Assembly (NCBI GenBank): GCA_963767005.1
Contig: CAVYCN010000002.1
Coordinates: forward strand, 256,001 to 320,000
Length of the DNA: 64,000 bases
Origin: an uncultured Actinomycetes bacterium
GTDB taxonomy: Bacteria > Actinomycetota > Thermoleophilia > UBA2241
Direction: 5' to 3'
Shown: positions 36,242 to 58,020 of the stretch, piece by piece
Position numbering within the stretch: the stretch's first letter is position 1
How the letters are laid out: the number at the start of each line of letters is the position of its first letter
The notes under the pieces: model-generated
Told to the model about the DNA's origin: nothing
The model's database searches: none
The model's input: the letters and a program-made list of their open reading frames with translations, nothing else
Program-made: the position numbers and the translations under genes

Positions 36242-36305
36242 CACACAGTCGCACTTGACTGTAGCCCGTGTGAGCTTAGTATCGTTTGCGATTCTGTGCG
36301 ATTCG
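36242..36305 (+). promoter_or_regulatory. Promoter/operator region of the first island operon
   Basis: TTGACT (36255) with TAGTAT 16 nt later; cacacagtcgcac and tandem tgcgattc units, also seen at 53648. Confidence 0.55.
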
Positions 36306-36603: not shown

Positions 36604-37551
36604 GTGAAGGTGCGGCTCTTCTTCGCTACCGACGTACACGGGTCCGAGGTCTGCTGGCGCAAGTTCATCAACTCGGCCAAGCACTACGAAGCCGACGTCC
36701 TCATCCTGGGCGGCGACATGACCGGCAAGGCGATCGTCCCGGTCGTGGCGACCGGCGCCGACAGCTGGCAGTACCACATGCAGGACCTGCAGCACGAGCT
36801 GCACGGCGACGACGAGCTCGCCAAGGGCGAGCGCCTGATCCGCGATCACGGTTACTATCCGGTGCGAGTCACGCACGACCAGGTGCAGGAGTACATGTCG
36901 CAGCCCGAGAAGCTCGACGACCTCTTCGCCCAGGAGCGCCGGCACACCCTCGAGGGCTGGGTCGAGTGGGCCGACGAGCGCCTCGCCGGCAGCGGCATCC
37001 AGTGCATCGTCTGTCCCGGCAACGACGACCATAGCGACATCGACGAGGTCCTCGCCACGTCCAAGGAGATCATCGTGGGCGAGGGCAACGTCCTCGACCT
37101 GTCGGGCGGCTACCAGCTTGTCTCGAGCGGGTGGACCAACCTGACCCCCTGGGACACGCCGCGCGAAGAAGACGAACCGCTTCTCAAGCGGCGCATCGAG
37201 GCGATCATCGCGCAGGCCAGCGCACCGGCCGACAAGCTCGTCCTCGGCCTGCACGCGCCGCCCTTCGACACGCAGCTCGACGTGGCTCCCAAGATCGACT
37301 GGGAGACGCTCACGGTGCAGGGCCAGGACACGGCCCACGTGGGTTCCACGGCGGTGCGCGAGATCATCGACCAGGTGCAGCCGCTGCTGTCGCTGCACGG
37401 CCACATCCACGAAAGCCGCGCCGCCGTGCGCATCGGGCGCACGCTTGCGGTCAACCCCGGCAGCTCCTACGTCGAGGGCACGCTGTCGGGCTGCGTCGTC
37501 GAGCTCGACGGCAAGAGCAAGGTCAAACGCTACCGGCTGACCATGGGATGA
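36604..37551 (+). CDS. Calcineurin-like (Icc-related) metallophosphoesterase, copy 1
   Basis: ATDVHG, GGD, PGNDD, HAPP, HGHIHE; GTG after GGAGG. Confidence 0.88.
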   Translation: MKVRLFFATDVHGSEVCWRKFINSAKHYEADVLILGGDMTGKAIVPVVATGADSWQYHMQDLQHELHGDDELAKGERLIRDHGYYPVRVTHDQVQEYMSQPEKLDDLFAQERRHTLEGWVEWADERLAGSGIQCIVCPGNDDHSDIDEVLATSKEIIVGEGNVLDLSGGYQLVSSGWTNLTPWDTPREEDEPLLKRRIEAIIAQASAPADKLVLGLHAPPFDTQLDVAPKIDWETLTVQGQDTAHVGSTAVREIIDQVQPLLSLHGHIHESRAAVRIGRTLAVNPGSSYVEGTLSGCVVELDGKSKVKRYRLTMG

Positions 37552-37628
37552 GCGTGCCCGGGTCTGTCGTTCGGGGGAGGCGGCGTCCGTCGCCGTCCGT
37601 GATGGGTCAGTTCAAGGAGGTTCGCTAG

Positions 37629-39272
37629 ATGGCGACGAACACGCAAGCACCGCGGGCGCCGGAGCAAACGCTCTTCGTCCGCAAGGCGAGCGGTCTGGTC
37701 AAGGGGTGGTCCACGACCGACGGCTTTCGCTACTCGTTCTTCTCGACCAACATCTTCCTGGGAATCTGGGGCATCCTCTACTGTGTCTTCATCCCTGGAG
37801 GCAGCGTGTTCTGGGGTGTCGTCATCACGACGGCGTTCGTTCTGCTCGAAGTGTTGGTGTATTCGGGCCTGATCTCAGCCATGCCGCGTGCCGGCGGCGA
37901 CTATGTCTGGCAATCGCGCGTGTTTCACAGCTCGGTGGGCTTTGTGCTAGGGGCCACGGGCTGGTGGTTCATTCTCTGGCTCTGGATCCCCATCTACGCC
38001 GCCCTGTGCGTGAACTCGTTCATCAACCCGGTCCTCAGGATCGTCGGCGCCGGTGGCACCGCCAACTGGCTGCTCACGCACAACGGCGTCTTCGTGGCCT
38101 CACTTGCCACCATCGCGCTCGCCACGTATCTGGTCGCGATCGGCATGAAGGCCTATGCGACCTTCCAGAAGTGGGCCCTCTGGATCGGCCTGGCCGGCAT
38201 CGCCGTCGCCGGCGTCATCCTGCTCGTCACCTCGAAGGCCGGGTTCATCAGCGCCTTCAACCGTGAGAGCCTCCACCTCTACGGCGCGCACAACGCCTAC
38301 GCCGCGACCATCAAGAACAGCGGCGCCGGCATGCCGTCGTCGATGTTCAGCGGCACGGTCTGGCAGACCTTCAAGCTCATCCCCTTCATGTGCTTCTGGT
38401 TGCTGTGGCCGAACTGGGGCGCCACCCTCTACGGCGAGGTCCGCGGCGCCAAGGACTTCCGCAAGAACATCTACCAGATGGGTGGCGGCCTGCTGTCGGC
38501 GGCCGTCATAGTGATCATCTTTCTGTTCCTCGTGACCAAGACGATGGGCTACAAGTTCTTCATGGCCGCGGCCAACGGCTACATGGGCGTGCTCTACGGC
38601 TACATCAAGTCGACGCCGCACAACGGCGACTACCTCTCGCCGACCGCCATGATCGCCTGGGTCGTCAACAACTCGGCCTTCCAGGTGGTCCTCATCGCCG
38701 CCATCAGCCTGCTCGTGTTCGGCTGGTGGGGCACCGTGTTCCTCTCGTCGACGCGCATGATCTTCGCTTCGGCCTTCGACCGCATCCTGCCCGAAGGCGT
38801 GGCCAAGGTGACGTCGGGCGGCGTGCCGGTCGTGGCGCTTCTGTGCATGGTGATCCCGTCGATCATCGTGTCGGCCTTCTACGCCTACCAGCCTTCGTTC
38901 GTGCAGCTCACCTATGACGCCACGCTGGTCATCGCGGTCATGTTCCTCGGCTCCGGCCTGGCTTTCATGGTCATGCCGTGGCGCACCAAGACCATCTGGG
39001 ACAACTCGGCGCTGCCCAAGCTCAAGGCCCTGGGTGTGCCGATCATGTCGATCGTGGCCGCCGCCTACTCGGCGTTCATGGTGTTCAACCTCTACCTGTG
39101 GATCTACGACCCGACCAACACCTACGGCATCGGCTACAAGAACAAGAACTCGATGATCTTCATGGGCATCCTGTACGTCGCCGCGATCGCCATCTGGGTC
39201 GTGGCCTGGGCCGTCCGCAAGCGCCAGGGCATGGCGCTCGAAGCGGTCGCCAAGGAGATCCCGGTCGAGTAA
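37629..39272 (+). CDS. APC-superfamily permease, copy 1
   Basis: About 12 or more TM segments; FVRKASGL, MPRAGGDY, GEVRGA, AFDRILP, C-terminal EIPVE. Confidence 0.9.
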   Translation: MATNTQAPRAPEQTLFVRKASGLVKGWSTTDGFRYSFFSTNIFLGIWGILYCVFIPGGSVFWGVVITTAFVLLEVLVYSGLISAMPRAGGDYVWQSRVFHSSVGFVLGATGWWFILWLWIPIYAALCVNSFINPVLRIVGAGGTANWLLTHNGVFVASLATIALATYLVAIGMKAYATFQKWALWIGLAGIAVAGVILLVTSKAGFISAFNRESLHLYGAHNAYAATIKNSGAGMPSSMFSGTVWQTFKLIPFMCFWLLWPNWGATLYGEVRGAKDFRKNIYQMGGGLLSAAVIVIIFLFLVTKTMGYKFFMAAANGYMGVLYGYIKSTPHNGDYLSPTAMIAWVVNNSAFQVVLIAAISLLVFGWWGTVFLSSTRMIFASAFDRILPEGVAKVTSGGVPVVALLCMVIPSIIVSAFYAYQPSFVQLTYDATLVIAVMFLGSGLAFMVMPWRTKTIWDNSALPKLKALGVPIMSIVAAAYSAFMVFNLYLWIYDPTNTYGIGYKNKNSMIFMGILYVAAIAIWVVAWAVRKRQGMALEAVAKEIPVE

Positions 39273-39311
39273 CCTGCATCTGTCGTATACGCCAGTCTCG
39301 CGCGGCGTGAC

Positions 39312-39354
39312 GGCGGCGGCGGTCCGGCCCCACAGGGGCCGGACCGCCGCCGCC
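39312..39354. terminator. 20-bp intra-operon hairpin
   Basis: ggcggcggcggtccggcccc-aca-ggggccggaccgccgccgcc. Confidence 0.5.
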
Positions 39355-39392
39355 CTGCCACGCCGGGCACCGACCACGAAGGAGGTCGATAC

Positions 39393-40205
39393 ATGGCACA
39401 GCCGTTCATCCTGCCCAAGGACATCCCGATCGAGCGTTACCCCAAGCCCGAGGTCTTCCTCTCCGAGGGCAAGCGCCTGACCGAGGAAGCGCAGAAGCGC
39501 GGCATCATCATGCGCGTCATGGGGCCGCTCGCGCTGCACTACTACTTCCCTGACCAGATCGACCTGTATGCCAAGCTCGAGCGCCTCGGTGAGCGCTACT
39601 TCACCGACATCGACTACGCGGCCTACAGCAAGACCGGCGGCAAGATGCGCGACTTCATGAAGGACATGGGCTACGAGTGCGACCTGCAGACCATGGCGAT
39701 GTCGGGCAAGACGCGGCACATCTACTACGCCGGCCCCGTGCCGATGATCGACGTGTTCTTCGACAAGCTCGACTACTGCCACGAGGTCAACTACAAGGAC
39801 CGTCTCGAGCTCGATCCGTGGAGCGTCTCGCTGTCCGACATCCTGCTGCAGAAGCTGCAGATCGTCGAGATCAACGACAAGGACCTGAAGGACATCGAGT
39901 ATCTGTTCATCACCTGCGAGATCGGCGACGACGACGATCACAAGATCAACCAGAACTACATCGCCAAGCGCTTCGCCGACGACTGGGGCTTCTGGTACAC
40001 CGCGACGCAGCTCAACCTCGATCGCGTCAAGAAGCACTGCGACACGGTGCCGGCCCTCACGCCCGAGATGCGCGAGCGGGTCAAGGCGCAGGCCGACAAG
40101 ATGATCGCGCGCGTCGACGCCGAGCCCAAGACCAAGGCCTGGACCAAGCGCGCCAAGAAGGGCGCCTCGAAGACCTGGTACAACGAGGGCTTCTCCGACT
40201 GGTGA
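39393..40205 (+). CDS. Uncharacterised nucleotidyltransferase-fold protein, copy 1
   Basis: RVMGPLA ... RYFTDIDY (hG/DxD pattern), IDVFFD third Asp, KLQIVEINDKD; paralog of 45548-46360. Confidence 0.7.
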   Translation: MAQPFILPKDIPIERYPKPEVFLSEGKRLTEEAQKRGIIMRVMGPLALHYYFPDQIDLYAKLERLGERYFTDIDYAAYSKTGGKMRDFMKDMGYECDLQTMAMSGKTRHIYYAGPVPMIDVFFDKLDYCHEVNYKDRLELDPWSVSLSDILLQKLQIVEINDKDLKDIEYLFITCEIGDDDDHKINQNYIAKRFADDWGFWYTATQLNLDRVKKHCDTVPALTPEMRERVKAQADKMIARVDAEPKTKAWTKRAKKGASKTWYNEGFSDW

Positions 40206-40251
40206 CGCCCGCACGGCAGCGATCCCGAGAAGGAGGAAGGTTCAAGCGTCT

Positions 40252-41661
40252 ATGAAGATCCTCACCCGTATGGGCGACAGCTCCACGGTCGAGATCACCC
40301 GTGACGAGTTGCGCCACGAACTCGAGGAGGGCACCGAGTCGGCCGCCAAGAGGGCCAAGATCCCTCCGCTCACCGAGAACGAGCTCGACTACCTCGAGGA
40401 CATGTTCGCCTGCCCCAGCCGCATCTGGGGCGTCGAGCGTGGTCACGAGGTCGTCATGACGAAGGACGGGTGCGTCAACGCCCTGAACTCGTCGCGCATG
40501 TCGAGCGGCGTGACGGCGCCGGTCAACCGCGAGGTCGGCGTGCGCCTCTTCGAGTCGATGCTCGGCTTCGACTCGATGGAGGTCTCGCACAACGACTACT
40601 CGGTCAAGCCGCAGCGCTTCCTCAAGGCGCTCGAGCAGGTGCACATGGAGCTCCTGCAGGAGACCACGATCTTCCCCCTGCTCTACGGCTTCATGCCCAA
40701 CCTGGGGCTCTACTACCGGCCCGACGGCTCCTTCGAGAACCCCTCCGACCTGCTGCCACTGGGCAAGATCGACGAAGCTCGCAAGACCCAGGAAGCGGCC
40801 CTGCAGGCGTGCATGGACGACTGCATCCTGATGAGCGACTGCATGCTCGAGATGGGCGCCGACGGCATCGACTACGACACCGTGGCATCCACGGGCGACG
40901 CCGAGTTCCTCGCCGTCCTGAAGACGACCGAGCACGTTGCCAACGTCACCGGTCTGCCGGTCGAGATCGGCATGTCGGCCGAGATGGTGCTCGGCTTCCA
41001 CGGCGAGCTCGAATACGACGGCGTGCGGCTCGCCGGCCTGTGGCCGCACCAGCAGCTCCAGCTCTGCGAGAAGGCCGGCACCGCGATCTTCGGGCCGGTC
41101 GTGAACACCAACACCAGAAAGACGGTGCCCTGGAACCTCTCGCGGGCCGTCACCTTCGTGAAGGCCTGCACCGACATCGCCAAGATCCCGGTGCACGCCA
41201 ACGTCGGCATGGGCGTCGGCGGCGTGCCGATGTTCGAGACGCCGGCCGTCGACGCGGTGACCAGGGCCAGCGCGGCCATGGTCGAGATCGGCCGCGCCGA
41301 CGGGTTGTAGGTGGGTACAGGCGATCCAGCCGGCATGCACATGGCGCATCTGCTGGCCTCGTCGATGGGTGGCATCAGGGCCGCTGGAGATCTGGTAGCC
41401 CGTATGGAGCTCAAGAAGATGAGGATCACGGAAGCCAAGCAGTACGTGGCCGACAAGCTGCACGTCAGCCCGCTCGACCTGTCCGACCCGCTCGTCATGC
41501 GCAACCTGCGCGAGGAGCTCGACATCGGCGTCATCACCGGCGTGCCGGGCGTCGCGAAGGGCATGGCGGCGAAGTTCCGCATCGCCGAGCTGCTCGACAT
41601 CGAGATCAACTCGGTGGAGCAGTTCAAGAAGAAGACCGGCGTCACGACCGCCAAGGTCTGA
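40252..41661 (+). CDS. mtbB: MtbB-family (dimethylamine:corrinoid) methyltransferase with in-frame amber codon, probable pyrrolysine at codon 353
   Basis: ORFs 40252-41310 and 41311-41661 are one frame separated only by TAG (41308-41310). MtbB motifs on both sides: [64 protein letters not shown]. Confidence 0.92.
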
Positions 41662-41670
41662 GAGCGCCGC

Positions 41671-41730
41671 AAAAGCGAAGCGACGGGGCGGGGCGAGCCA
41701 GAGGGCTCGCCCTGTCCCGTCGCCGTTTTC
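41671..41730. terminator. Bidirectional terminator between convergent operons
   Basis: aaaa..gcgacggggcggggcgagcc-agag-ggctcgccctgtcccgtcgc..tttt. Confidence 0.75.
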
Positions 41731-41732
41731 GG

Positions 41733-42659
41733 TCAGACCTGGGAGAGCCAGTCCCTGAAGGCGGGCTGGCCGGCGTTGCGCCAGAAACGCTCGATGCGGT
41801 TCATGCCGTAGGCGAAGAAATCGAAGTCGAGCGCCGAGACCTTGTGCTGGATCATCGCCCAGATGCTCCACCAGTGATCGGCGACCAGCTTGTAGAGCAT
41901 CATGCGGCCGTAGCGCTGCTCGTCCCAGCCGCCGCAGTAGGTGGTCAGGACGGTGCGCTCCTCGGCGTCGCTCAGCGGGTGCTCGACGCAGAAGTCGCCG
42001 AGGTCGAAGTACGGGTCGGCCATGCCGCCGTACTCCCAGTCGATCACCCACAGCCTGCCGTCCCGCGCGACGATGAAGTTCTCGGACAGCAGGTCGCAGT
42101 GGCAAGCGACGGGGGCCGGCTGGTCGCGCTCCATGGCGAGCTCGATGGCGTCGCCCAGCGGGAACATGTGCTCGAGCGACGCCGGCAGCACGGCGCCGAC
42201 CTCGTGGGCCATCGCCGTGTACTCGCGGATCATGTCGAAGACCTGGATCTCGTTCGAGAACACGGCGCCGTCGTGATAGGTGCGCACGGCCTGCACGATC
42301 TTGTCGAGATGGTCGGGGTGGCCGGCGATCGTGTCGGGGTGCAGGGTGACGCCGTCGATGAACGGCACCACCGTGCAGGGCCCCGGCTCGATGCGGTGCA
42401 GCAACGGCGGCGTCACGCCGGTCGCGGCGGCGGCCACGTGGTTGGCGAGCTCGCGCTCACGGTCGATGAAGACATCGGTGCCCTGGCCGGGGATGCGCAG
42501 CACGTAGCGCGCGGCCGGCTCCGCGCCCTCGCCGGCGACGCTCACCAGGAAGTTCTGGTTGGTGATGCCGCCGCCGAGCACCTCCCAGCTCACCTGCCGG
42601 CCCTGCCAGTCGGCGATCTGGGCGATGACCTCGTCGGGTGTCATGGTGGCGGTCGTCAT
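41733..42659 (-). CDS. Choline/ethanolamine kinase-family phosphotransferase, copy 1
   Basis: GGGITNQN, VLRIPG, CHCDLLSENF (Brenner motif), IDWEYGG, DPYFDLG. Confidence 0.88.
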   Translation of the reverse strand: MTTATMTPDEVIAQIADWQGRQVSWEVLGGGITNQNFLVSVAGEGAEPAARYVLRIPGQGTDVFIDRERELANHVAAAATGVTPPLLHRIEPGPCTVVPFIDGVTLHPDTIAGHPDHLDKIVQAVRTYHDGAVFSNEIQVFDMIREYTAMAHEVGAVLPASLEHMFPLGDAIELAMERDQPAPVACHCDLLSENFIVARDGRLWVIDWEYGGMADPYFDLGDFCVEHPLSDAEERTVLTTYCGGWDEQRYGRMMLYKLVADHWWSIWAMIQHKVSALDFDFFAYGMNRIERFWRNAGQPAFRDWLSQV

Positions 42660-42833
42660 GCTTCGTCGTCCCCTCGCTTGAGATCGTGGTGCGGCCGGAC
42701 CGACGCCGCTCGCAGCGGAAAGGAGCGATGGGACCGGCCTGTGCGGGTGGCGGGGAAGAGGCCGCGGGCGCCGGGCCGTGCAGCCCGGCGCCCGCGGCGC
42801 CCTTGCGAGCCCGCGGCTGATGCTAGAGCCGCC

Positions 42834-44468
42834 TCACTCGGGCGGCACCTCGAGGAACGCGTACGAGATGTCGACGCCCCTGCCGCGCTGGTAGTAACGG
42901 GTGATCCAGAAGACGACGAGGCAGGCGACGAACACGCCCGCGACGATGACGTAGCCGACGGTGTTCTTGAGACCGTAGGCGGGCTTGATCAGGAACAGCG
43001 CGGAAGCGATGACGCCGAGAACGAAGCCGATCAGTCCGAGCACGGTGACCCACGGGATACCGAAGATCTTGTACTGGGCGCCGGGCGCCGCGTCGAAGAG
43101 CGCCTTCGCGCGATACGGGAGCAGGGCGGCCGCGAGTGCGCTGACCACGAAGACGTAGCCTGCGGCGAACGTGACGCCCAGCGTCAGCTTCGCCCAGGAG
43201 CTGATCATGGTGTAGCCGAACAGCCAGACGACCCCGCAGATGAAGTAGATGAGGTGGGCGTTCAGCGGGGAGCGGAAGCGGGGGCTGATCCGCGAGAGCC
43301 AGGCCGGCAGCGTGCGGTCCAGCGACATGCCGACCATGATACGGGTCACCCCGATGTAGCAGTTGCAGGTGATCTGCAGCGAGGCGAGCATGAAGCAGAC
43401 GCCGGTGACGATCACGAGGATCGGGTTCGGCGAGATCACGGTCGCGTACGTGCCCGGGAAGGGGAAGACGCTGCCGATGCCGTTGCCCGACTTGCTCACC
43501 CCGCCGAACCACGAAGCCGACACCGCGTGGAAGAAGCCGGTGCCGACGGCCTTCTGCTCGGCGGCCGCGATGAGCGCGAGGACGCAGCCCAGCGCGATCA
43601 GGGAGCCCACGATGATGAAGATCTGGTTCTTGAACACGCGTGCGCCCTTGATCTCACCACCCTGCTCGACGCTGTAGGTCGCCCACTGCGTGCTGGTCCA
43701 GGCGATCGGGGCGGCCAGGAGGGTCGCTCCCAGGGCGAACTTCGCATGCAGGTTGAAGCCGGCGGCTGAGACGTCGTGCTGGATCCAGTTGTAGTAGTTC
43801 GGGTTCTTGTCGACGAAGGCCGAGTAGTGGTTCATCGCGACCGCGAAGCTCGACGGCGACGTACGCAGGAACTGGATGAGCACGATCGCGATGAGGATCC
43901 CGGTGCCGGCGAACATGAAGTACTGCAGGCGGACGTAGTTCTTGAAGCCGGTCACCAGCAGCATGGCCATGGCCGCCATTCCGATGATCGAGACGACGAT
44001 GAGCCCCTCCTTCGACTGCGCCCAGACGGCGGCGCTGACGAGGTGCTGGTTCTGGTAGTGGACGCCCAGGCCCATCAGCATGGGCGAGAGGCCGAGCGTG
44101 CAGAACAGCCAGCCGGCCAGCGACAGCCACTGCAGGATCCAGATGACGAAGCCGCTCATCACGATCGGAAAGCCGACCGCGCCTCCGAGGATACGGCTCT
44201 GGAAGACGTAGTCACCGCCGGAGCGCGGCATCGCCGTGGCCATCCAGCAGTAAGCCAGCGCGATCGGCAGCTCGAGCAGCGTGGCAAACAGGCACGCCAG
44301 CCACACCGAGACGCCGGGGAACGCATACGGCGCCTCGGCGATGATCCAGGGGAAGATGACCCCCATGGTCAGGAAGTTGTACATGAACGCAGACCAGGGC
44401 GACATGACCCTGGACAGCCCCGAAGCCTTGCGACTGAAGACTTCGGGTTTGGCGACGGTTGCTTCCAT
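42834..44468 (-). CDS. APC-superfamily permease, copy 2
   Basis: FSRKASGL, MPRSGGDY, GGEIKGA, SLDRTLP, C-terminal EVPPE. Confidence 0.9.
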   Translation of the reverse strand: MEATVAKPEVFSRKASGLSRVMSPWSAFMYNFLTMGVIFPWIIAEAPYAFPGVSVWLACLFATLLELPIALAYCWMATAMPRSGGDYVFQSRILGGAVGFPIVMSGFVIWILQWLSLAGWLFCTLGLSPMLMGLGVHYQNQHLVSAAVWAQSKEGLIVVSIIGMAAMAMLLVTGFKNYVRLQYFMFAGTGILIAIVLIQFLRTSPSSFAVAMNHYSAFVDKNPNYYNWIQHDVSAAGFNLHAKFALGATLLAAPIAWTSTQWATYSVEQGGEIKGARVFKNQIFIIVGSLIALGCVLALIAAAEQKAVGTGFFHAVSASWFGGVSKSGNGIGSVFPFPGTYATVISPNPILVIVTGVCFMLASLQITCNCYIGVTRIMVGMSLDRTLPAWLSRISPRFRSPLNAHLIYFICGVVWLFGYTMISSWAKLTLGVTFAAGYVFVVSALAAALLPYRAKALFDAAPGAQYKIFGIPWVTVLGLIGFVLGVIASALFLIKPAYGLKNTVGYVIVAGVFVACLVVFWITRYYQRGRGVDISYAFLEVPPE

Positions 44469-44532
44469 GGTTACCCCCAGATCAGTTTGCGGACCGAAAC
44501 GCCGGCCGGTTCACGGCCGTGAGTGAGCAGAC

Positions 44533-45531
44533 TCAGCCTGACGTCATCTGATAGCCCACCACCTTGCCGGGCTCGAGCGTGATGATGCAGCCCCGGATGA
44601 TGCCCTCGCCGTACTCGCTGCCGGGGTTGATGACGGTCGTGCGACCGAGGTTCACAAGGCCGCGCGACTCGTGGATGTGTCCCGTAAGGGCGAGCAGGGG
44701 CGCGTGCTTCTCGATGATCTTGCGCACCGCCGTGCTGCCGGCCGGCGCCGACTGCGGCACGCCGGCGATGACGATGGGCGAGGGCGGGTCGGTCGACCAG
44801 TCGAGCTTGGGGCAGTCGTCGAGCGTGCAGTCGTAGGGCGGCACGTGCATGTTGAAGATGGCGCTCGTGAAGTCGTCGATGCCGTCGACCGCCTGCTCGA
44901 GCAGCGTGTAGAGGGACTCCTCATCGGTCTCGCGCGGCGTCGCCCAGGGCGTCGGGTTGCTGTGGCCGCAGTTGGCCATGGGGTAGAAGTCGTCGAACAG
45001 CACGACCCGGCCCTCGCAGTTGACTACATGCTCGCTCTGCACCTCGTCGAAGACGGTGAGCACGTCGGGCGGGTCGTCGTTGCCGCCGGTCACGTACCAC
45101 TTGATCGGCGTGTCGGCGAGGCGCTCGTCGGCCAGCGCGATCCAGCGCTCGATGCGCTCGCGCGCCAGGCGATGGAACGTGCCGTCGACCTGTGACTGGT
45201 CCGCCTGCATGGCGTGGAGCTCGTCCTCGGCCATCGTCACGTGGTAGAAGCCGAGCGTCTCGATGCGCTCCTTGATGGCGGCCAGGGCGTCGTCGCCCTC
45301 GATGTGCTCGGTCGTGCCCTGGAGCGTCACGCGGTAGTGGCTGTCGTGCTCATGGACGATGGGCACGAGGAACTTGCCCATGATGTCGCCGCCCATGATG
45401 ATGTGGTCGACCTTGTAGAACTTGGCGCAGTTCACGAACTTGCGGAACGTGCGCTCCGAGCCGTGCACGTCGGTCGCATAGAACAGGCGCACGCGTTTGG
45501 CCCCGCCGTCCTTCTTCTTGAACAGTCCCAT
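44533..45531 (-). CDS. Calcineurin-like metallophosphoesterase, copy 2
   Basis: ATDVHG, GGD, GGNDD, HVPP, TGHIHE. Confidence 0.88.
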   Translation of the reverse strand: MGLFKKKDGGAKRVRLFYATDVHGSERTFRKFVNCAKFYKVDHIIMGGDIMGKFLVPIVHEHDSHYRVTLQGTTEHIEGDDALAAIKERIETLGFYHVTMAEDELHAMQADQSQVDGTFHRLARERIERWIALADERLADTPIKWYVTGGNDDPPDVLTVFDEVQSEHVVNCEGRVVLFDDFYPMANCGHSNPTPWATPRETDEESLYTLLEQAVDGIDDFTSAIFNMHVPPYDCTLDDCPKLDWSTDPPSPIVIAGVPQSAPAGSTAVRKIIEKHAPLLALTGHIHESRGLVNLGRTTVINPGSEYGEGIIRGCIITLEPGKVVGYQMTSG

Positions 45532-45547
45532 GGCGTGACCCGTCCTC

Positions 45548-46360
45548 TCAGTCGATCTCGTTGTACCACTTGACCTTGTCGCCGACCTTGGAGCGCAGGC
45601 GCCAGCGGGTGCCCTTGGGCTCGTCGTCCATCGCCTTGAGCAGCTCGCCGACGCGCTGCGCCACGACGGCGCGGTCTTCGTCGGACAGGTCGACGTGCGG
45701 CAGGTAGTCGCGTACCTTGCCGAGGTTCATCGAGCTCGTGCGCCACAGGCCCCACTCGCCGGCGCACAGGGTGGCGATCCGGGCCGCGTTTATGTGATCG
45801 GCGTCGTCGCGCGCGATCTCGTGCTCGCGCAGCAGCATGATGGTGTCGATGATGTCCTTCTCGTTGATCTTGACGATCTGCATCTTCTCCAGGACGAGCT
45901 CGGCCAGCGGGATGGTGGGGCTGTCGACGGCGAGCCGGTCCTTCCAGGGGATGGGGTGGCAGAAGTCGAGCCGGTCCATGAAGACGTCGACGTGGATGTG
46001 CTTGACCGGGTGGTTGAAGATCAGGCGCCCGGCCTCGGCGTGGAAGCTGTTGATCTCGACGTCCTCGTCGTAGCCGAGCGCGATGAAGAGGTCGCGGATC
46101 GGCTTTGACTGCTTGCCGTAGCCGGCGAAGTCGATGTCGGTGTACACGCGGTTGAGTTTGGCCTGGATCCAGCCGAACTGCGGGCAGTGATGGTGGAAGG
46201 CAAGGGCGCCGATCACGCGCAGCGCCACGCCGGCCTGCTGACCCGCCTGGACGACCCGCAGGGCCTCGTCCTCGAACACCCGCGCGAGGTCGGCGTCGGG
46301 CTGGCCGACGCCGACCTGCGCGCCGATCTCGCCGGCGGGGTGGGTGTCCTGATCGCTCAT
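45548..46360 (-). CDS. Uncharacterised nucleotidyltransferase-fold protein, copy 2
   Basis: RVIGALA ... RVYTDIDF, VDVFMD, KMQIVKINEKD, PK...W..R.K.G....WYNE; ATG 46360 after GGAGAG. Confidence 0.7.
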   Translation of the reverse strand: MSDQDTHPAGEIGAQVGVGQPDADLARVFEDEALRVVQAGQQAGVALRVIGALAFHHHCPQFGWIQAKLNRVYTDIDFAGYGKQSKPIRDLFIALGYDEDVEINSFHAEAGRLIFNHPVKHIHVDVFMDRLDFCHPIPWKDRLAVDSPTIPLAELVLEKMQIVKINEKDIIDTIMLLREHEIARDDADHINAARIATLCAGEWGLWRTSSMNLGKVRDYLPHVDLSDEDRAVVAQRVGELLKAMDDEPKGTRWRLRSKVGDKVKWYNEID

Positions 46361-46418: not shown

Positions 46419-47201
46419 CTAGACCACCTCGCAGCGCGGTCCGGCACGCTCGACGCGCTTGCAGACGTCGGCCGCGAGGCCGCCGTCGGTGACGACCACA
46501 TCGACCTGGTCGAGCGGGCAGATGACGACCGGGCCGACGCGCTCGAACTTGGTGTGGTCGGCGAGGACCACTACCTCGCCGCGCGTGCGGCGCACCATGG
46601 CGAGCTCGAGCCCGGCGGCGGCGATGCTCACGGTCGTGAGGCCGGCGCGCACGTCGATGCAGTCGGCGCCCAGGAAGGCCTTGTCGGCGTTGAAGTGCTG
46701 GATCATGTCGAGCGGCCAGGAGCCCTCGACCGACTCGAGCTGCGGCCGGTAGAGGCCGCCCAGAAAGACGAGCTCGACGCGCAGGCCGCGGGCCTCGGAG
46801 ACGGCCGCGAGGTTCGGCGTGACGACCCTGGCCTCGAGGCGCGGGTCGATGTGGCGCATGATCTGCGCGACCGTGCTGCCGGAGCCGAAGAAGACGGTGT
46901 CGCGCGGTTCGATCATGGCGGCCGCCGCGCGGGCGATGCCGTCCTTCTCGGCCGCCTGGGGATCGGGGCCGCCGTCGAAGCCGGCTTCGACGGCCGGCCG
47001 GCGGCGCACGGCGCCACCGTGGGTGCGGGCGAGCACGCCCTCCTGCTCGAGCAGCATGAGGTCGCGCCGGATGGTGATCTCGGAGACGCCGAGGTCTTCG
47101 GACAGGGTGGTGACGCGCACGGCCGGCCGACCCCGCAGCGCGGCCACGATGCGCGCCCGCCGTTCCGCGGGCAGCATCTCGCGTACGTCGGACGCGGACA
47201 C
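46419..47201 (-). CDS. DeoR/GlpR-family regulator 1
   Basis: HTH VSEITIRRDL...RTHGGA, EKDGIA, GSGST, ADHTKF. Confidence 0.93.
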   Translation of the reverse strand: MSASDVREMLPAERRARIVAALRGRPAVRVTTLSEDLGVSEITIRRDLMLLEQEGVLARTHGGAVRRRPAVEAGFDGGPDPQAAEKDGIARAAAAMIEPRDTVFFGSGSTVAQIMRHIDPRLEARVVTPNLAAVSEARGLRVELVFLGGLYRPQLESVEGSWPLDMIQHFNADKAFLGADCIDVRAGLTTVSIAAAGLELAMVRRTRGEVVVLADHTKFERVGPVVICPLDQVDVVVTDGGLAADVCKRVERAGPRCEVV

Positions 47202-47226: not shown

Positions 47227-47291
47227 CGATCATGATCGGACATGACCGTTCAAAGGTGATCAGATTCTAGGATCGGTTTCGGCGATGTCAA
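47227..47291 (-). promoter_or_regulatory. Promoter and palindromic operator for the deoR1 operon
   Basis: On the minus strand TTGACA (47291-47286), 16 nt, TAGAAT (47269-47264); downstream palindrome CGATCATGATCG (47227-47238). Confidence 0.7.
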
Positions 47292-47353: not shown

Positions 47354-47917
47354 TTAGTGCCTGCGGCCTCCACGACGCTGCCGCGCTCGGGGGCGGCGGG
47401 TGGGTCGCGGGGAGGCGGGATGTTCACGATCCTCGGGTGCGCTCGGTGCGGCCGCGTGCGCCCTGGTCAGACGGGCGTCCCGGATCATGATGAAGGCGAA
47501 GGCGAGAGACGCAAAGACGAAGCGGGTGACCGACGGGCCTGCGCCCCTTCCCAAGGTCAGGAGCCCCGTGACCATGCCGGTCAGGCCGGTCGCCCACATT
47601 ACGAGTTGCACGTTGGCGGTTTGATGGCGAGGCACGATCCGGAGGTACGACGCGTTCAGAGCCATGACCAGCATGAGGAGCACGCTGATCGTGGTGAGAC
47701 CGAGCATCACGTACATCGGGCCCGCCTTGACCGAGGGGTCAGGCCTTTCGACGAAGCCGATGAGCGACGCCAGCATCATGAGGGCGACCACTCCGACCAC
47801 GCACACCAGCAAGAACAGGCTGCCTCGGCGGATCGAACGGCCCCCGCCGACGGGCCGCGGCGCCCAATTGGCGCCGCGGCCGTCGCGTGGCCCTTTGGCT
47901 GACCCCCTACGATTCAC
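47354..47917 (-). CDS. Hypothetical 4-TM membrane protein
   Basis: Four hydrophobic segments flanked by basic ends; start uncertain. Confidence 0.55.
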   Translation of the reverse strand: MNRRGSAKGPRDGRGANWAPRPVGGGRSIRRGSLFLLVCVVGVVALMMLASLIGFVERPDPSVKAGPMYVMLGLTTISVLLMLVMALNASYLRIVPRHQTANVQLVMWATGLTGMVTGLLTLGRGAGPSVTRFVFASLAFAFIMIRDARLTRAHAAAPSAPEDREHPASPRPTRRPRARQRRGGRRH

Positions 47918-48989: not shown

Positions 48990-50636
48990 CTAGTCCTGCA
49001 GCTCCAGTTCGCGCTCGATGGCCGCGAGCTCCTCGGCCGAGCCCTGGACCTTCGGGCCCTTGAACCACTTCCGGGCCGAGACTGCCCAGTAGATGCCGGC
49101 GAAGCCGATGACCGCGCCCACCGCGATGGGCGTGTAGTTGAACGTCTTGGCCGTGACCGGCGCATAGGTCGGCAGCAGGAAGATGATGCAGATGAACACC
49201 ACCCACACGATGGAGATCCAGCCGATGATCGCACCGAAGGTCTTGCCCAGGACCCAGGGCCCGGGTTTGAAGGCCTTGCCGTTGATGCGGCGCAGGAACA
49301 CCGGCGTGAGGTAGGCGATGTAGAGCCCGATGACGGCGATCGACGTGACGGCGCCGTAGGCGACCGTGTTCCAGAGGTAGGGCAGCGCCAGCAAGAAGGC
49401 GCCGACGGCGCCGAACCAAGCGGTGCGCACCGGTACGCGGCGCCTCGGGTTGACGTGGTGCCAGAAGTTCGAGCCGGGGACCGCGCCGTCACGTGAGAAG
49501 GCGTAGATCATGCGCGAGTTCGCGGTGACCGACGACATGCCGCAGTAGAACTGGGCGCCGATCACGACCAGGATAAGCAGCTCGGCGACGATGCGACCGG
49601 CACTGTACTCGAAGATCGTGGCCCATGGCACGACGGCAAGGGCCACATCCGAGTAGCTCTTGTAGACGGTGCCCTCGATAGTGATCGGGAAGTGAGTGGG
49701 AATGGCGATGCTCACCGCGAACAGCAGGATGAAGCCCGCGATCAGAGAGACCCAGATCGAGTCGACGATCCCCCTGGGGCCAGCGATGTCGGCGCGCACC
49801 GTCTCTTCGGTCACGTGGGCCGAGGCGTCGTAGCCGGTGAACGTGTACTGCGCGTTCAGCAGGCCGACCAGAACGATATAGAAGGGGATCGAGAAGCCTG
49901 AAAGGCCGGTGAAGGCGTGCCAGCCCGAACTGCCGAAGAGGAAGCCCACAGTCTGGTGCGTGTGCGACTTCGGGGCCACCAACAGAATCACGAGGATCAC
50001 CGCGACACCCAGGATGTGCCACCACACCGAGACGTCGTTCAGGAGCGCCACCAGGCGGATGCTGAACGTGTTGAGCAGACCCTGCGCAAAGAGGATGACG
50101 GCAAGAATGGCGATCGTGTGGCCGGGCGAGAGCCAGTAGCTCTGGTTGGTGTAGAGGGCGAGGAACGCCGACACGGAGAAGGCGCAGCCGAAGCTGATGC
50201 CCGCCGTGACGGCGACCTGGCCGAGCAGGTTGAACCAGCCGGTGAACCACGACCAGACCGGGGCGCTGTTGCCGGGCGCGAGCTTGGCCGCCCAGTAGTA
50301 CAGGCCGCCCGCCGTAGGGAACGACGAACAGATCTCGGCCATGGACATGCCGACGAAGATCACGATCACGCCGACGCCGAGCCAGCCCCAGAGCATGACG
50401 GGCGGGCCGCCGTGCTGCAGGCCGAAGTAATAGAGGGTGAGGCAGCCCGAGAGGATCGAGATGATGGTGAACGAGATGGCGAAGTTCGAGAAACGGCTCA
50501 TCCGCCGGTCGAGCTCCTGGGCGTAGCCCATCTGGTGGAGCCGCTCCTCGTCGGTCATCTCGCGAGGCGGCCCGGCGGACGTCAGGCCGGTCCCTCCCTG
50601 AGCGTCGGCCGAAGGAGTGTGGACGTCGTCAGCCAT
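48990..50636 (-). CDS. APC-superfamily amino acid/choline/GABA-type permease
   Basis: GYAQEL..R..SNFAISF, EICSSFPTAGGLY, GYDASAH..EET, SRMIYAFSRDG; a different subfamily from the two cassette permeases. Confidence 0.9.
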   Translation of the reverse strand: MADDVHTPSADAQGGTGLTSAGPPREMTDEERLHQMGYAQELDRRMSRFSNFAISFTIISILSGCLTLYYFGLQHGGPPVMLWGWLGVGVIVIFVGMSMAEICSSFPTAGGLYYWAAKLAPGNSAPVWSWFTGWFNLLGQVAVTAGISFGCAFSVSAFLALYTNQSYWLSPGHTIAILAVILFAQGLLNTFSIRLVALLNDVSVWWHILGVAVILVILLVAPKSHTHQTVGFLFGSSGWHAFTGLSGFSIPFYIVLVGLLNAQYTFTGYDASAHVTEETVRADIAGPRGIVDSIWVSLIAGFILLFAVSIAIPTHFPITIEGTVYKSYSDVALAVVPWATIFEYSAGRIVAELLILVVIGAQFYCGMSSVTANSRMIYAFSRDGAVPGSNFWHHVNPRRRVPVRTAWFGAVGAFLLALPYLWNTVAYGAVTSIAVIGLYIAYLTPVFLRRINGKAFKPGPWVLGKTFGAIIGWISIVWVVFICIIFLLPTYAPVTAKTFNYTPIAVGAVIGFAGIYWAVSARKWFKGPKVQGSAEELAAIERELELQD

Positions 50637-50891
50637 GGCTGCCCCCGTAGTCCAGTGTGGCAAACAGTGTCGCCGTCTATCTAGACCGCTCACCGGTCTT
50701 CCTGTCAACCACTTTTCATGACGCACTATTTATGCACCGGCACGCACAGAAGCCTTGAGAATTGCCGTTTAAGGAAATCGCGACCCCCGAAACTGCCCCC
50801 GGAGTCGTATGCCGACCGGCGCCGCGTCGCCGTCGGGCGGACCCGCGTCGACCGTGCCGCGCAACGGCGCGGCGGCCGCTCCGCTCACGCA

Positions 50892-54574: not shown

Positions 54575-55825
54575 TTGGACCCGGACAGGGCAAACGAGCT
54601 GCTCGAGGTGGCCGAGAGGCTGGCGGCCGACGCCGCCGCGCTGCGCGCCGAGCTCGACTACGAGTTCAAGACCGGTCAGCTCGCGGCGGTGGTCGCCGAC
54701 GACTACGACCTCGGCGAGGTCGTCGGCGTCGACCAGATCTTCGGCGGCTACTGCAACCTGAGCTTCGCCGTGCGTACGCGCACGGCCGCGGGCGAGCAGC
54801 GCTACTTCGTGCGCAAGTACGGTCGCTCGATCACCGAACGCGAGATCCGCTTCGAGCACGCGCTCGTGCACCACATCGACGGGCAGGGCCTGCATCTGGC
54901 CGCGCGCGTGTACACCAACAAGGCCGGTGGCACCTACGTCGTGCGCGACGAGCTCCACGGTGGTGAGCGCGAGACCAGGTACTTCGCGGTCTACGAGATG
55001 CTCGGCGGGCTCGACAAGTACACCTGGGTGAAGAACCGCCTGACCGACGTCGAGTTCGACAGCGCTGCTCGCGTCCTCGCCCAGTTCCACTATCTGGCCC
55101 ACGACTTCGACCCCGGTGACCTGGGCCGCAACCAGCCGCCGATCATGCAGCTCCTGCGCGACCTGCGCCCGGCCTTTGCGCGCTACGCCGAGCAGGCGAA
55201 GGCCGGTGGGAGCATCGTCGACGACTACTACCTGCACTGGCTACCCACCATCGACGAGGCCCTGCGCCGCGGCGCCGAACAGGAGGCCGACCTGCAGGGG
55301 ATGCCCTACATCCCGGTGCACTGCGACTATCACCCCGGCAACCTCAAGTGGGTCGACGGCGACGTGCCGGCCGGCGCCTCGCGTTGCTGCGGCCTCTTCG
55401 ACTTCGACTGGTCCAAGCTCGACTATCGCATCTTCGACGTGGCCGAGGGCATCGTGTACTTCTGCAGCTCCTGGGAGGGGCACGACAGCGGCGAGCTGTG
55501 GCTCGACAAGGCGGCGATCTTCCTGCGCGCCTACCAGGACGAGGCCGCGCGCTTCGACACGCCCGGGCCGCTGTCGGCAGCCGAGCTCGCGGCTCTGCCG
55601 CGCATGATCGCGAGCGCCAACCTGTACGTGCTCAACTGGGACGTGAGCGCCTACTACGAGGCCGAGGACGAGTTAAACGACGACGAGTACCTCATGTACC
55701 TCAAGCATCAGGTCATGTTGATGGAGTTCATCGAGGCTCACCTCGACGAGCTGTCGCGCCTGGCGGAGCCGCAGGAGGCAGCGGCGCGACCGTCGGGCCT
55801 CGACCACGAGAAGGAGAGGGGCTGA
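54575..55825 (+). CDS. Aminoglycoside/homoserine kinase type II-like phosphotransferase
   Basis: GGYCNLSF, FVRKY, FEHAL, VHCDYHPGN, FDFDW. Confidence 0.82.
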   Translation: MDPDRANELLEVAERLAADAAALRAELDYEFKTGQLAAVVADDYDLGEVVGVDQIFGGYCNLSFAVRTRTAAGEQRYFVRKYGRSITEREIRFEHALVHHIDGQGLHLAARVYTNKAGGTYVVRDELHGGERETRYFAVYEMLGGLDKYTWVKNRLTDVEFDSAARVLAQFHYLAHDFDPGDLGRNQPPIMQLLRDLRPAFARYAEQAKAGGSIVDDYYLHWLPTIDEALRRGAEQEADLQGMPYIPVHCDYHPGNLKWVDGDVPAGASRCCGLFDFDWSKLDYRIFDVAEGIVYFCSSWEGHDSGELWLDKAAIFLRAYQDEAARFDTPGPLSAAELAALPRMIASANLYVLNWDVSAYYEAEDELNDDEYLMYLKHQVMLMEFIEAHLDELSRLAEPQEAAARPSGLDHEKERG

Positions 55826-55830
55826 TCCGC

Positions 55831-57282
55831 ATGGGATTCGCCGAGCTGCTCACGCCGCAGGAGGTCCGCCGCACGCACGAGGCGTCGCTCGAGGTACTCG
55901 AGGCCGTCGGCATCCTGGCGCACAACCCGCGGGCCCGCGACGTCTTCGCCAGGCACGGCTGCACGGTCGACGCCGAGACCGGCGTCGTGCGGCTCCCGGC
56001 CGACGTGGTCGAGCGCTACCGCGCGCTCGCGCCGTCGAGCTTCACGTTCCGGGGCCGCGACCCGAAGTTCGACCGCACCATCCCCGACGACGGCCCGATC
56101 GTCGTCACGGGCTCGTCGGCGCCCAACGTCGTCGACCCGGCGAGCGGCGTGGAACGGCGCGCGACGTCGGCCGACATCGCCACGATCGCGCACCTGATCA
56201 ACGAGCTGCCGGGCTTCGACGTCTTCTCGATCTCGACCCTGGCCGACGACGCGCCAGAGGGCCAGTTCAGCCTGAGCCGCTTCTACCCGGCCCTCAAGAA
56301 CTGTCTCAAGCCGGTGCGCAGCAACACGCCCAACATGGAGGACCTGCGTCAGGTGGTCGAGCTCGGCGAGATCATCGCCGGCGGCCCCGACGCGTACCGC
56401 GAGCGACCCGTCATCAACCACCACTACTGCCCGATGGTGAGCCCGCTCACCATGGACGTCGAGTCGACCGAGGCCGTCCTGTGGCTGACCGAGCGCGGCC
56501 TGCCGGTGTACACGACGGTCGTACCCAACGCCGGCCTGACCGCGCCGATGACCATGATGGGCTGCCTTGTCGTGGGCAACGCCGAGTTCCTCGCCATCAC
56601 CGTGTTCCAGCAGATGGTGAAAGAGGCGACGCCGGTCATCTACGCCAGCCTGCCGACCGTGGCCGACATGCGCACCGGCGCCTACGCGCCGGGCGCGATC
56701 GAGACCGGCATGCTGCTCGCCGCCCAGGCCCAGCTCGCGCGCTTCTACGACGTGCCGGCGGGCGGCTACATCGGGCTCACCAACGCCCACAGCAACGACG
56801 CCCAGGCGGGCTTCGAGACCGGCATGAACACCGTCCTCGGCGTGGCGGCCGGCGCGACCCTGCTTAACATGGGCGGTCTGTTCAGCTCGCTCATGGCGTT
56901 CGACTTCGCCAAGTGCGTGATCGACAACGAGATCGCCCTCATGGACAAGCGCGTCTGGCGCGGCCTCGAGTTCAGCGAGGAGAACCTGGCGCTCGCCGAG
57001 ATCGCGGCCGTCGGACCGGGCGGCAGCTACATGGGCCGCCAGCACACCAAGCAGCGCATGAAGACCACCGCCGTCCTGCCGCGCCTGGCCAACCGCGAGA
57101 TGCGGGCCCAGTGGGAGGACGCCGGGCGTCCCGACATCCACAGCCGGGCGCTGGCCGAGGCGCGCCGCATCCTGGCCGAGCCCAACCCGGCCGTGTGGGA
57201 CGCGTCGCTCGACGCGGCCGTCCGGGCGCGGTTCCCGGGCATCGTCGCCGGCGACGCCGTGCCGCTCGAGGCGCGGGTGTAG
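55831..57282 (+). CDS. MttB-superfamily corrinoid methyltransferase, non-pyrrolysine
   Basis: HEASLEVLE..GI, SPL, AGLTAPMT..G....NAE.LA, DMRTG, DAQAGFE, IDNEI, VGPGG; no internal TAG. Confidence 0.92.
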   Translation: MGFAELLTPQEVRRTHEASLEVLEAVGILAHNPRARDVFARHGCTVDAETGVVRLPADVVERYRALAPSSFTFRGRDPKFDRTIPDDGPIVVTGSSAPNVVDPASGVERRATSADIATIAHLINELPGFDVFSISTLADDAPEGQFSLSRFYPALKNCLKPVRSNTPNMEDLRQVVELGEIIAGGPDAYRERPVINHHYCPMVSPLTMDVESTEAVLWLTERGLPVYTTVVPNAGLTAPMTMMGCLVVGNAEFLAITVFQQMVKEATPVIYASLPTVADMRTGAYAPGAIETGMLLAAQAQLARFYDVPAGGYIGLTNAHSNDAQAGFETGMNTVLGVAAGATLLNMGGLFSSLMAFDFAKCVIDNEIALMDKRVWRGLEFSEENLALAEIAAVGPGGSYMGRQHTKQRMKTTAVLPRLANREMRAQWEDAGRPDIHSRALAEARRILAEPNPAVWDASLDAAVRARFPGIVAGDAVPLEARV

Positions 57283-57372
57283 CGAGCGCGCGGCGAGGAG
57301 CCTGCGAAGAGAAGCGACCGGCCGCGCACGAAGGCGGCCTGACCGGTCACCGTCAAGACCAAGGAGTAGCGC

Positions 57373-58020
57373 ATGGCGCACGAGGAGCTGTTCGAGCAGT
57401 TGAAGCACGCGATCATCGACCAGGACGAGGACGCCGTCCTCGCGGCCGTCGACAAGGGCCTGGCCGCCGGCGTCGAGCCGAAGACCCTGATCGACCAGGG
57501 CCTGCTGCCCGGCCTCAACGTCATCGGCGAGCAGTTCGAGGCCGAAGACATCTTCCTGCCCGAGCTGATGCAGGCGGCTCTGGCGTTCCAGGCGGCCATG
57601 GCCGTGCTCGAGCCGAAGATCAAGGAGAGCGGCAGCGAAGGTCCGAAGAAGGGCAAGATCGTGCTCGGCACGGTCAAGGGCGACCTGCATTCCATCGGCA
57701 AGAACATCCTCAAGCTGCTCTTCGAGACCTCGGGCTACGAGGTGTGGGACCTCGGCATCGACGTCGACCTGTTCAAGTTCGTCGACAAGGCCAAGGAGGT
57801 CGACGCCGACGTCATCGCCATGTCGGCCCTGCTCACCACCACCCTGGTCGGCCAGCGCGATGTGATCGAGGCGCTCAAGGGTCAGGGGACGCGCGAGAAG
57901 TACAAGGTCATCATCGGCGGCGGCGCTACCACCCAGGCGTGGGCCGACCAGATCGAGGCCGACGGCTGGGCCGGCACAGCCTACGAGGCCGTGAACCTCG
58001 TGGGCAGGCTGGTCTCGTGA
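57373..58020 (+). CDS. Methyltransferase-associated corrinoid protein (MtmC/MtbC/MttC-like)
   Basis: Cap domain with IFLPEL, GTVKGDLHSIGK (DxHxxG), SALLTTT, IIGG. Confidence 0.93.
   Translation: MAHEELFEQLKHAIIDQDEDAVLAAVDKGLAAGVEPKTLIDQGLLPGLNVIGEQFEAEDIFLPELMQAALAFQAAMAVLEPKIKESGSEGPKKGKIVLGTVKGDLHSIGKNILKLLFETSGYEVWDLGIDVDLFKFVDKAKEVDADVIAMSALLTTTLVGQRDVIEALKGQGTREKYKVIIGGGATTQAWADQIEADGWAGTAYEAVNLVGRLVS

Follow-up and report, generated by a model that had tools for sequence, protein, structure and literature searches.

GlnD with PII (GlnK) and AmtB, and GlnE with glutamine synthetase, are nucleotidylyl switches in which a Pol-beta-type transferase works together with an opposing hydrolytic activity, and GlnD controls its transporter indirectly. 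To our knowledge, no transporter family depends on a nucleotidyltransferase and a phosphodiesterase of its own. Here we describe a 64,000-nucleotide stretch from an uncultured, soil-type actinobacterium (contig CAVYCN010000002.1, positions 256,001 to 320,000; hereafter designated the window), which carries two copies of a gene trio encoding a nucleotidyltransferase (NT), a calcineurin-like metallophosphoesterase (MPE), and an APC-superfamily permease with a characteristic N-terminal head and C-terminal tail (NT1, MPE1, and APC1 in cassette 1; NT2, MPE2, and APC2 in cassette 2). We moderately favor the account that NT and MPE are a writer and an eraser, which put a nucleoside monophosphate (NMP) onto, and take it off, a fixed Ser/Thr of the permease head in a cycle that would control the inner gate; every chemical step of this cycle is one that we infer. 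The trio is a real and widespread transport unit and apparently undescribed. Neither the trio nor such a modification is described in any paper that full-text searches returned, most subscription journals being outside their coverage, and the main text of a classification of nucleotidyltransferases (PMC2794190) mentions neither a permease nor a phosphoesterase.

Inheritance and layout of the trio

Profiles of the three families were run on one set of 301 Actinomycetota genomes, with E cut-offs of 0.001 for NT, 1e-30 for the permease, and 1e-20 for MPE; the tallies include the source genome and two unpublished genomes (G120 and G018), and related genomes in the set are not independent. NT was found in 43 genomes, the permease in 43, and MPE in 41; the trio is common, all three families being present in 41/301 genomes, and none of them was found in 257. 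The permease family was also present in 42 of the 43 NT-positive genomes. The three exceptions are G266, with one NT fragment (E 4e-4), G271, with a broken NT and a partial permease, and G280, which is 57% complete and has a permease fragment at a contig end. Moreover, the trio is kept in small genomes of 1.4 and 1.6 Mb (G208 and G028), and NT is present in 18/18 genomes of the source organism's family.

Comparable results were obtained at the level of loci. Forty NT-selected regions from other genomes comprised 37 with the full trio, two without the permease, and one with NT alone, and all three genes stood together in 70/80 GTDB loci (the best 80 of 435). In a metagenome set of 80 MPE-selected loci, which come without taxon names from 3 of the 64 parts of the collection, the trio was complete in 49/80 and, where at least 3 kb was available on both flanks, in 24/28. 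The genes occur in 14 orders and orientations. Relatives are also found in Chloroflexota and archaea, and plasmid NZ_CP031312.1 of the cultured haloarchaeon Halobellus limi carries a full trio, whose proteins have the accessions WP_160113950.1, WP_103992469.1, and WP_103992470.1; coverage outside Actinomycetota consisted of two plasmids, protein labels, and the 80 metagenome loci. Collectively, permease, NT, and MPE are inherited as one widespread unit, beyond chance. These counts bear out the proposal of an earlier note on this DNA that the three genes form a conserved functional unit, with NT homologs accompanying this MPE and this APC subfamily in other genomes. Extra genes also recur near the trio, mostly at loci of lower G+C content (L122:4037-5084, L167, L168, L171, L184, L185, L173, L177, and L183), which encode a small membrane protein of two helices, a protein bearing the motif W-x-A-x-F-x-E...LSR, and, at some loci, another NT that is a distant paralog; these genes are absent from the window.

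The two cassettes of the window converge, and all genes and motifs of the duplication that the earlier note had described were found where it had placed them. The features are as follows.

36255..36282, plus strand: candidate sigma-70-like promoter of cassette 1 (consensus scan, 9/12 matches; function not implied)
36604..37551, plus strand: MPE1, calcineurin-like metallophosphoesterase (Pfam PF00149 above cut-off; GNDD motif; C-terminal Gly)
37629..39272, plus strand: APC1, APC-superfamily permease of the head-and-tail family (PF13520 above cut-off; GkApcT profile match)
37674..37703, plus strand: APC1 head, F16-K25, FVRKASGLVK; the Ser21 codon (37689-37691) is the proposed tag site, its role as target being inferred
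39255..39269, plus strand: APC1 C-terminal tail, EIPVE (family ends fixed as P-x-E/D)
39273..39392, plus strand: strong hairpin between APC1 and NT1 (-81.9 kcal/mol, z -6.95)
39393..40205, plus strand: NT1, predicted Pol-beta-fold nucleotidyltransferase, 270 aa (G44, D72, D74, D120, K154; structure model and fold matches)
40252..41661, plus strand: mtbB, dimethylamine-type methyltransferase with an in-frame TAG (PF09505, E 4e-189 on read-through); a cargo gene, outside the trio
41680..41723, no strand assigned: terminator-like hairpin with a 20-pair stem, where the convergent units meet
41733..42659, minus strand: choline/ethanolamine-kinase-like gene (PF01633); a cargo gene, outside the trio
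42834..44468, minus strand: APC2, second head-and-tail permease (PF13520 above cut-off; head FSRKASGLSR with Ser16 at 44421-44423; tail EVPPE)
44533..45531, minus strand: MPE2, calcineurin-like metallophosphoesterase with a short basic N-terminal extension (Pfam scan)
45548..46360, minus strand: NT2, 270 aa (D75, D77, D125; homology to NT1 at E 7e-53, and alignment)
46419..47201, minus strand: DeoR-family regulator, first gene of cassette 2 (PF00455 and PF08220); local, outside the trio
47264..47291, minus strand: candidate sigma-70-like promoter of cassette 2 (consensus scan, 11/12 matches)

Between the two cassettes, the paralogs are 43% (MPE), 26% (APC), and about 36-37% (NT) identical. A third permease in the window (48990-50726) is an ordinary APC protein with neither head nor tail, as had been claimed. 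Long open frames hinted at an APC-NT fusion, which was rejected because each gene has its own stop. The convergent double cassette was seen again in close relatives; among the matches listed, the closest relatives are labelled Thermoleophilia. In total, the source genome holds nine NTs, six MPEs, every one of them beside a permease, and nine head-and-tail permeases. A segment of contig C3 of the same genome (G000:C3:96911-98736) is 99.6% identical at the nucleotide level to NT2 plus MPE2 (window 44535-46360), and its neighbors are a permease 69% identical to APC2, an FGGY kinase, and, nearby, a terminase gene. The copy may reflect gene conversion or assembly collapse; it was set aside as evidence because its limits coincide with the gene ends and a collapse is possible.

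Predicted folds and active sites of the two enzymes

The earlier note had named the lack of a Pol-beta nucleotidyltransferase fold as one finding on which its proposal would fall. NT1 is predicted to have this fold: its model (predicted local distance difference test score, pLDDT, 91.6) drew nucleotidyltransferase-fold chains in nearly all top rows of the structure comparison (VIA), including ANT(2'')-Ia (PDB 4xje; Z 11.9, root-mean-square deviation (rmsd) 3.5 over 154 aligned residues), MenT1 as the second-best match (Z 11.3, rmsd 3.3 over 169), and LnuA (PDB 4wh5; Z 9.7, rmsd 3.1 over 137), and the best Foldseek E value was 7e-4. NT2 would be placed with NT1 by 36% sequence identity, the fold model being that of NT1 alone. 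The hG motif, the DxD pair, and the third acidic residue of the Pol-beta superfamily are present and the catalytic aspartates are intact in both NTs; over 122 NT relatives, G44, D72, and D74 are each kept in 121/122 and D/E120 in 122/122.

No Pfam or NCBIfam model exceeded its cut-off for NT1 or NT2, and NCBIfam names neither; NTP_transf_5 (PF14907) gave 16.5 bits for NT1 against a cut-off of 31.2 and no match for NT2. Single-sequence searches of the PDB with NT1, MPE2, and APC2 returned no significant match, and the best PDB hit of the NT profile was again ANT(2'')-Ia, at an E value of only 0.19. The NT family comprises 1559 clusters (50% identity) at E 0.001. Among the top 7992 candidates scored, 19 long relatives were found, all 19 fused to Fic, and in 16/19 a G takes the place of the usual D/E of the Fic motif (HPFVGGNGR or HPFAGGNGR). 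One Fic_N-Fic-NT fusion of 671 aa lies in the source genome itself (L006:5261-7276; G000:C2, about 614260-616275). Diverged stand-alone NTs with intact DxD were also seen (L003:6219-7355, L005:6406-7717, L007:6089-6901, and L009:6746-7606), two of which adjoin similar proteins of 113-115 aa that have no Pfam match. At L005:7974-11096, a protein of 1040 aa joins an ordinary APC permease to GAF and histidine kinase domains; its gene stands beside an NT and a head-and-tail permease.

The MPE1 model (pLDDT 95) best matched aq_1956 (Z 24.4) and TT1561 (Z 23.7), and its seven metal ligands (D10, H12, D38, N140, H217, H267, and H269) are all invariant in 31/31 aligned MPEs. By modeled fold and ligand set, MPE is a calcineurin-like metallophosphoesterase. 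The residue after GN is Asp in 31/31 aligned MPEs and in 123/125 of a wider set, in which the motif reads GNDD or ANDD in 122, GNDE in one, and is unmatched in two; MPE does not have the His after GN found in cyclic-nucleotide phosphodiesterases and monoesterases of the Rv0805 and CthPnkp type. According to passages of PMC2190708, this His is required both for Mn-dependent monoesterase activity and for the hydrolysis of cyclic phosphodiesters, and an Asn or Cys in its place leaves an enzyme that acts on acyclic diesters only. By analogy, GNDD instead of GNH fits an acyclic phosphodiesterase, those passages covering Asn and Cys, not Asp. The C-terminal residue of MPE is Gly in 96/96 and, in another set, in 76/80, the remaining four having Ala. 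MPE2 and many relatives begin with a short basic and hydrophobic extension, for example, MGLFKKK, which may bind the membrane; MPE1 is without it.

The permease head as candidate target of a nucleotide tag

Among solved permeases, GkApcT gives the best match to the permease profile (E 3e-18). A head pattern of R-x-x-x-G-h-x-R/K, in which the residue before G was left free, was matched by 107 of 108 permease N-termini, and that free residue proved to be Ser in 85 and Thr in 22 of the 107 heads, many of which come from close relatives. Its codons are AGY in 66, TCN in 19, and ACN in 22, so that both Ser codon families as well as Thr are used. In the more diverse metagenome loci, the position holds Thr in 48 and Ser in 10 (58/58), and over 90 aligned permeases it is the sole column that is wholly Ser/Thr; the hydroxyl is also kept in the permeases of Halobellus limi and Thermomicrobium roseum. 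At the other end, 129/129 complete permeases finish with P-x-E/D. Since the profile alignment pairs APC1 from V24 onward with GkApcT residue 24, Ser21 should lie just before transmembrane helix 1 (TM1). In GkApcT, an N-terminal lateral helix tethers TM1A and forms a salt bridge to TM8, as stated in passages of PMC5803215. The single N-terminus failing the pattern belongs to a permease on contig C11 (L010:6280-7863), which is nested in the family on a long branch, lacks head and tail, and has no NT or MPE beside it; its neighbors are a GAF histidine kinase, a response regulator, and a beta-lactamase-fold gene.

The genes around the trio were surveyed in 157 neighboring proteins from 43 chosen loci. 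APC1-clade neighbors include GMC oxidoreductase, aldehyde dehydrogenase, OpuAC, sulfatase, and DAO-GcvT genes, a neighborhood read as choline and betaine catabolism; other permease clades adjoin class III aminotransferase and Lrp genes, amidinotransferase and ornithine carbamoyltransferase genes, glutamine-synthetase-like genes, or FGGY kinases and sugar isomerases. As judged from these gene families, the neighbors point to varied cargo: choline, polyamines, guanidino compounds, and sugars. Regulators vary likewise (DeoR, Lrp, IclR, LacI, and PucR), and no fourth gene common to the loci was found among the scanned neighbors.

The transferase and the phosphoesterase differ in how closely they follow the permease. 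Over 43 trios, the Pearson correlations of pairwise identities are 0.92 for permease-MPE, 0.73 for permease-NT, and 0.80 for MPE-NT. NT1 is 76% identical to the NT of the Lrp/aminotransferase cassette of the source genome, whose permease is only 24% identical to APC1; more generally, NTs that are 64-76% identical serve permeases that are 22-25% identical, while the NTs of one cargo clade are only 26-40% identical. In trees of 26 of the 43 trios, with groups named after the identity data and trees had been seen, the APC1 clade is supported at 100 by the permeases and at 89 by the MPEs, and the NT tree rejects it (approximately unbiased test, p-AU 3e-37). From these data, it can be concluded that NT, including NT1 of the window, has changed cassettes. 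MPE appears to stay broadly, though not provably, with its own permease.

In the account that we favor, NT would move NMP from a nucleoside triphosphate (NTP), probably adenosine triphosphate, to the hydroxyl in FxRxx(S/T)G, and would read the head as a short motif, thereby serving unrelated permeases, also in trans. MPE would be the permease's own partner and hydrolyze the protein-O-NMP diester. Since the head immediately precedes TM1, where in GkApcT the lateral helix tethers TM1A and touches TM8, a tag there would either open the inner gate or lock it. Complete genomes yielded no intact permease without the enzymes, so that the cycle is probably a requirement for transport and not an option; all-or-none inheritance leans the same way, a switch and a transport-coupled cycle being inseparable here. 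The transporter rather than its substrate is taken as the target because cargo chemistry varies and NT moves between permeases about 24% identical. The writer/eraser pair that the earlier note had offered as one of three hypotheses is therefore favored with the transporter as its target and disfavored with the substrate. A head tag is the simplest way to bring together a transferase that can be exchanged, a diesterase that partners the permease, cargoes without relation to one another, and a single invariant hydroxyl. There are precedents for parts of the chemistry: passages of PMC8557913 indicate that an MPE-fold enzyme, PptH, can release a Ser-linked phosphodiester from a protein, PptH being a fold match of MPE1 (Z 15.5, rank 22), and parts of PMC11375011 report that MenT1 modifies a protein Thr. 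The Fic fusion of all the long NT relatives is a weak hint at protein modification, and the loss of head and tail in the C11 permease without adjacent enzymes counts, as a single case, for the same reading.

Several observations weigh against a head tag. Five of the nine NTs of the source genome are diverged and lie outside complete trios, and the NT family may accordingly have other targets. Four of the 28 well-flanked metagenome loci have no local NT, and a Thermomicrobium roseum plasmid carries permease and MPE without NT (the plasmid alone was searched). The co-occurrence counts come from related genomes of one phylum. ANT(2'')-Ia and LnuA act on small molecules and MenT on tRNA, none of them on proteins by NMP transfer. 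Ser96 of the permease is nearly as fixed (Ser/Thr in 89/90), and the invariant head residue could be structural, serving as a helix cap or in a gate hydrogen bond. Finally, the NT-type grouping withstands the test on the MPE data (p-AU 0.31), and the MPE tree gives the permease clade a support of only 89.

A bolder form of the head-tag account, which we regard as unlikely but deserving of attention, is that the trio performs primary active transport, with an APC-fold carrier free of ion coupling driven by the NTP-consuming cycle; the shared NT would load NMP onto the head Ser/Thr, and a bound MPE would unload it once for each solute imported. This fits all-or-none inheritance, retention in small genomes, the unrelated cargoes, and the distribution of charge in the permease. 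From their column positions, the conserved charged residues appear to lie on the cytoplasmic face, and no conserved charge was found outside that predicted face in alignments of 90 and 35 sequences. Equivalents of the ApcT residues E115, K191, and D237 were found in 0/35 at the aligned columns, a profile mapping that is approximate for E115. Taking the loss of K191 and E115 as proof of a new energy source was rejected, because K191 is not the coupling site of GkApcT and mammalian CATs lack E115 (passages of PMC5803215); the missing residues are also compatible with a uniporter or exchanger.

Among the explanations without a tagged head, the one that survives best is still improbable: NT would produce a nucleotide signal that diffuses, such as a linear dinucleotide, and the permease-bound MPE would break it down or sense it, gating uptake with no covalent modification. 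Pairs of synthase and phosphoesterase are common in signaling, NT is exchangeable between cassettes, and some NTs are fused to helix-turn-helix or other N-terminal domains. However, the His of cyclic-nucleotide enzymes is Asp in all the aligned MPEs, cGAS-like chains rank low against NT1 (Z 5.5), and the neighbors include varying regulators and no recurrent receptor gene. Most aligned permeases, moreover, have about 530-580 aa, APC1 and APC2 match no extra ligand-binding domain, and the fixed head Ser/Thr is left unexplained. The messenger hypothesis of the earlier note is thus disfavored for cyclic messengers, and a linear one is still compatible with the data.

The chance is slim that NT is instead an atypical kinase, which would transfer the gamma-phosphate to the head Ser/Thr with MPE as the phosphatase of a plain phospho-switch. 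MenT1, a top fold match of NT1, and MenT3 autophosphorylate T39 and S78, respectively, according to passages of PMC11375011, and in MPE the invariant Lys42 stands where monoesterases use an Arg. In contrast, NT keeps the complete three-Asp set for NMP transfer, and MPE is without the His that is required for the Mn-dependent monoesterase activity of CthPnkp in the passages of PMC2190708.

Equally hard to sustain is nucleotidylation of the incoming solute at the transporter, a lic-like or ANT-like trapping or activation that MPE would release. In its favor, ANT(2'')-Ia and LnuA adenylate small-molecule hydroxyls, three choline-type kinases lie in the window, and the His-less MPE relative YfcE cleaves p-nitrophenyl phosphorylcholine (passages of PMC2190708). 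The inferred cargoes, however, share no common group, and similar NTs sit with dissimilar permeases, as described above, whereas those of one cargo clade diverge. A choline-type kinase was found near the trio in just 3/40 and 3/80 distant loci and in 9/80 close loci, and none of the 157 scanned neighbors was assigned to LicC or LicD. The lic-like pathway that the earlier note had considered is accordingly unlikely, because the cargo varies and the kinase is local only.

It is no more probable that the pair acts elsewhere, on a catabolic enzyme, a regulator, or RNA, while head and tail merely anchor MPE at the membrane, for which the MenT-like fold and the five NTs outside complete trios, one of them fused to Fic, could speak, but no fourth gene is common across the loci, NT1 and NT2 have no PADLOC match, and the NT family is confined to permease-bearing genomes (42/43).

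Comparison with known systems

Part of the window resembles a described choline pathway. The mtbB TAG (41308-41310) is read through, with Rfam PYLIS_2 at 41308-41407 and tRNA-Pyl in the genome. The source genome has eight mtbB paralogs, pyrrolysine-type mtbB with PYLIS, and both tRNA-Pyl and tRNA-Sec; window 54608-62801 holds a kinase, MttB, a corrinoid protein, an MtmB-like gene, a GcvT-SHMT fusion, and a glycine riboswitch aptamer (59767-59867). Between the second kinase and DeoR, the minus strand may encode a small membrane protein (47357-47902), which has no family match over cut-off. In the window, choline or another methylated amine of its kind is the probable cargo, which would go on to the kinases and corrinoid methyltransferases. 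As described in passages of PMC12155760, Eubacterium limosum demethylates choline through MthK, MthB, MthC, and MthA, and its Mth cluster combines a choline-type kinase, an MttB-family methyltransferase, and a corrinoid protein as the island does. It has an EamA transporter, however, and the word permease does not occur in its text; by analogy, this pathway would explain why the island has kinases and methyltransferases but leaves the trio unexplained.

The closest solved permease is GkApcT, of the SLC7 CAT type (passages of PMC5803215), with which the trio permeases share cytoplasmic loop motifs. They differ from it in a variable TM1 substrate motif, the family-specific head and tail, and the want of K191/D237/E115 equivalents. 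The best structural matches of MPE1, TT1561 (1uf3) and aq_1956 (2yvt) of Pfam Metallophos_3, are yet only 17% identical to it, and the MPE family lies below the PF14582 cut-off and has a long insertion of its own besides the fixed C-terminal Gly. In PptT/PptH of Mycobacterium tuberculosis, an MPE-fold diesterase likewise removes a Ser-linked phosphodiester tag, but PptH is a distant fold match, its writer is not of the Pol-beta type, and its target is a carrier protein, not a transporter (passages of PMC8557913).

On the side of the transferase, ANT(2'')-Ia and LnuA share the hG...DxD...D core with NT1 and are its closest folds, at 10-15% identity; NT1 adds a conserved C-terminal helical part, and NT has no resistance context, being tied to a permease and a phosphoesterase. 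The RxxxDxD motif and a later Lys of the MenT/AbiEii (DUF1814) toxins are also kept in NT. No adjacent antitoxin, as in MenAT and AbiE, was named among the 157 scanned neighbors, and the auto-phosphoacceptor Ser/Thr two residues before the first Asp, a motif taken from passages of PMC11375011, is replaced by L/F/Y/I at NT position 70 in 94/122.

The trio can also be compared with GlnD and GlnE. It, too, pairs a Pol-beta-type transferase with an opposing hydrolase, but writing and erasing are divided between two small proteins, the erasing one is of the calcineurin-like type, and the permease itself would be the target. The transferase is not fused to a removing domain as in GlnD, NT1 and NT2 having 270 aa and the 19 longer relatives being Fic fusions, and no PII gene was named among the scanned neighbors, the single PII of the genome being on contig C6. 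Should the head tag prove true, it would be a new means of switching or driving nutrient uptake, and three large "hypothetical" families would gain a single testable job, with a named residue, catalytic mutants, and a cultured carrier in Halobellus limi. A cycle that drives uptake would energize an APC-fold carrier in a new manner; a switch would mean that a dedicated pair nucleotidylates a transporter directly, closer to a variant of GlnD/GlnE logic. By this analogy, the trio may work like a GlnD/GlnE-type switch that acts directly on the carrier.

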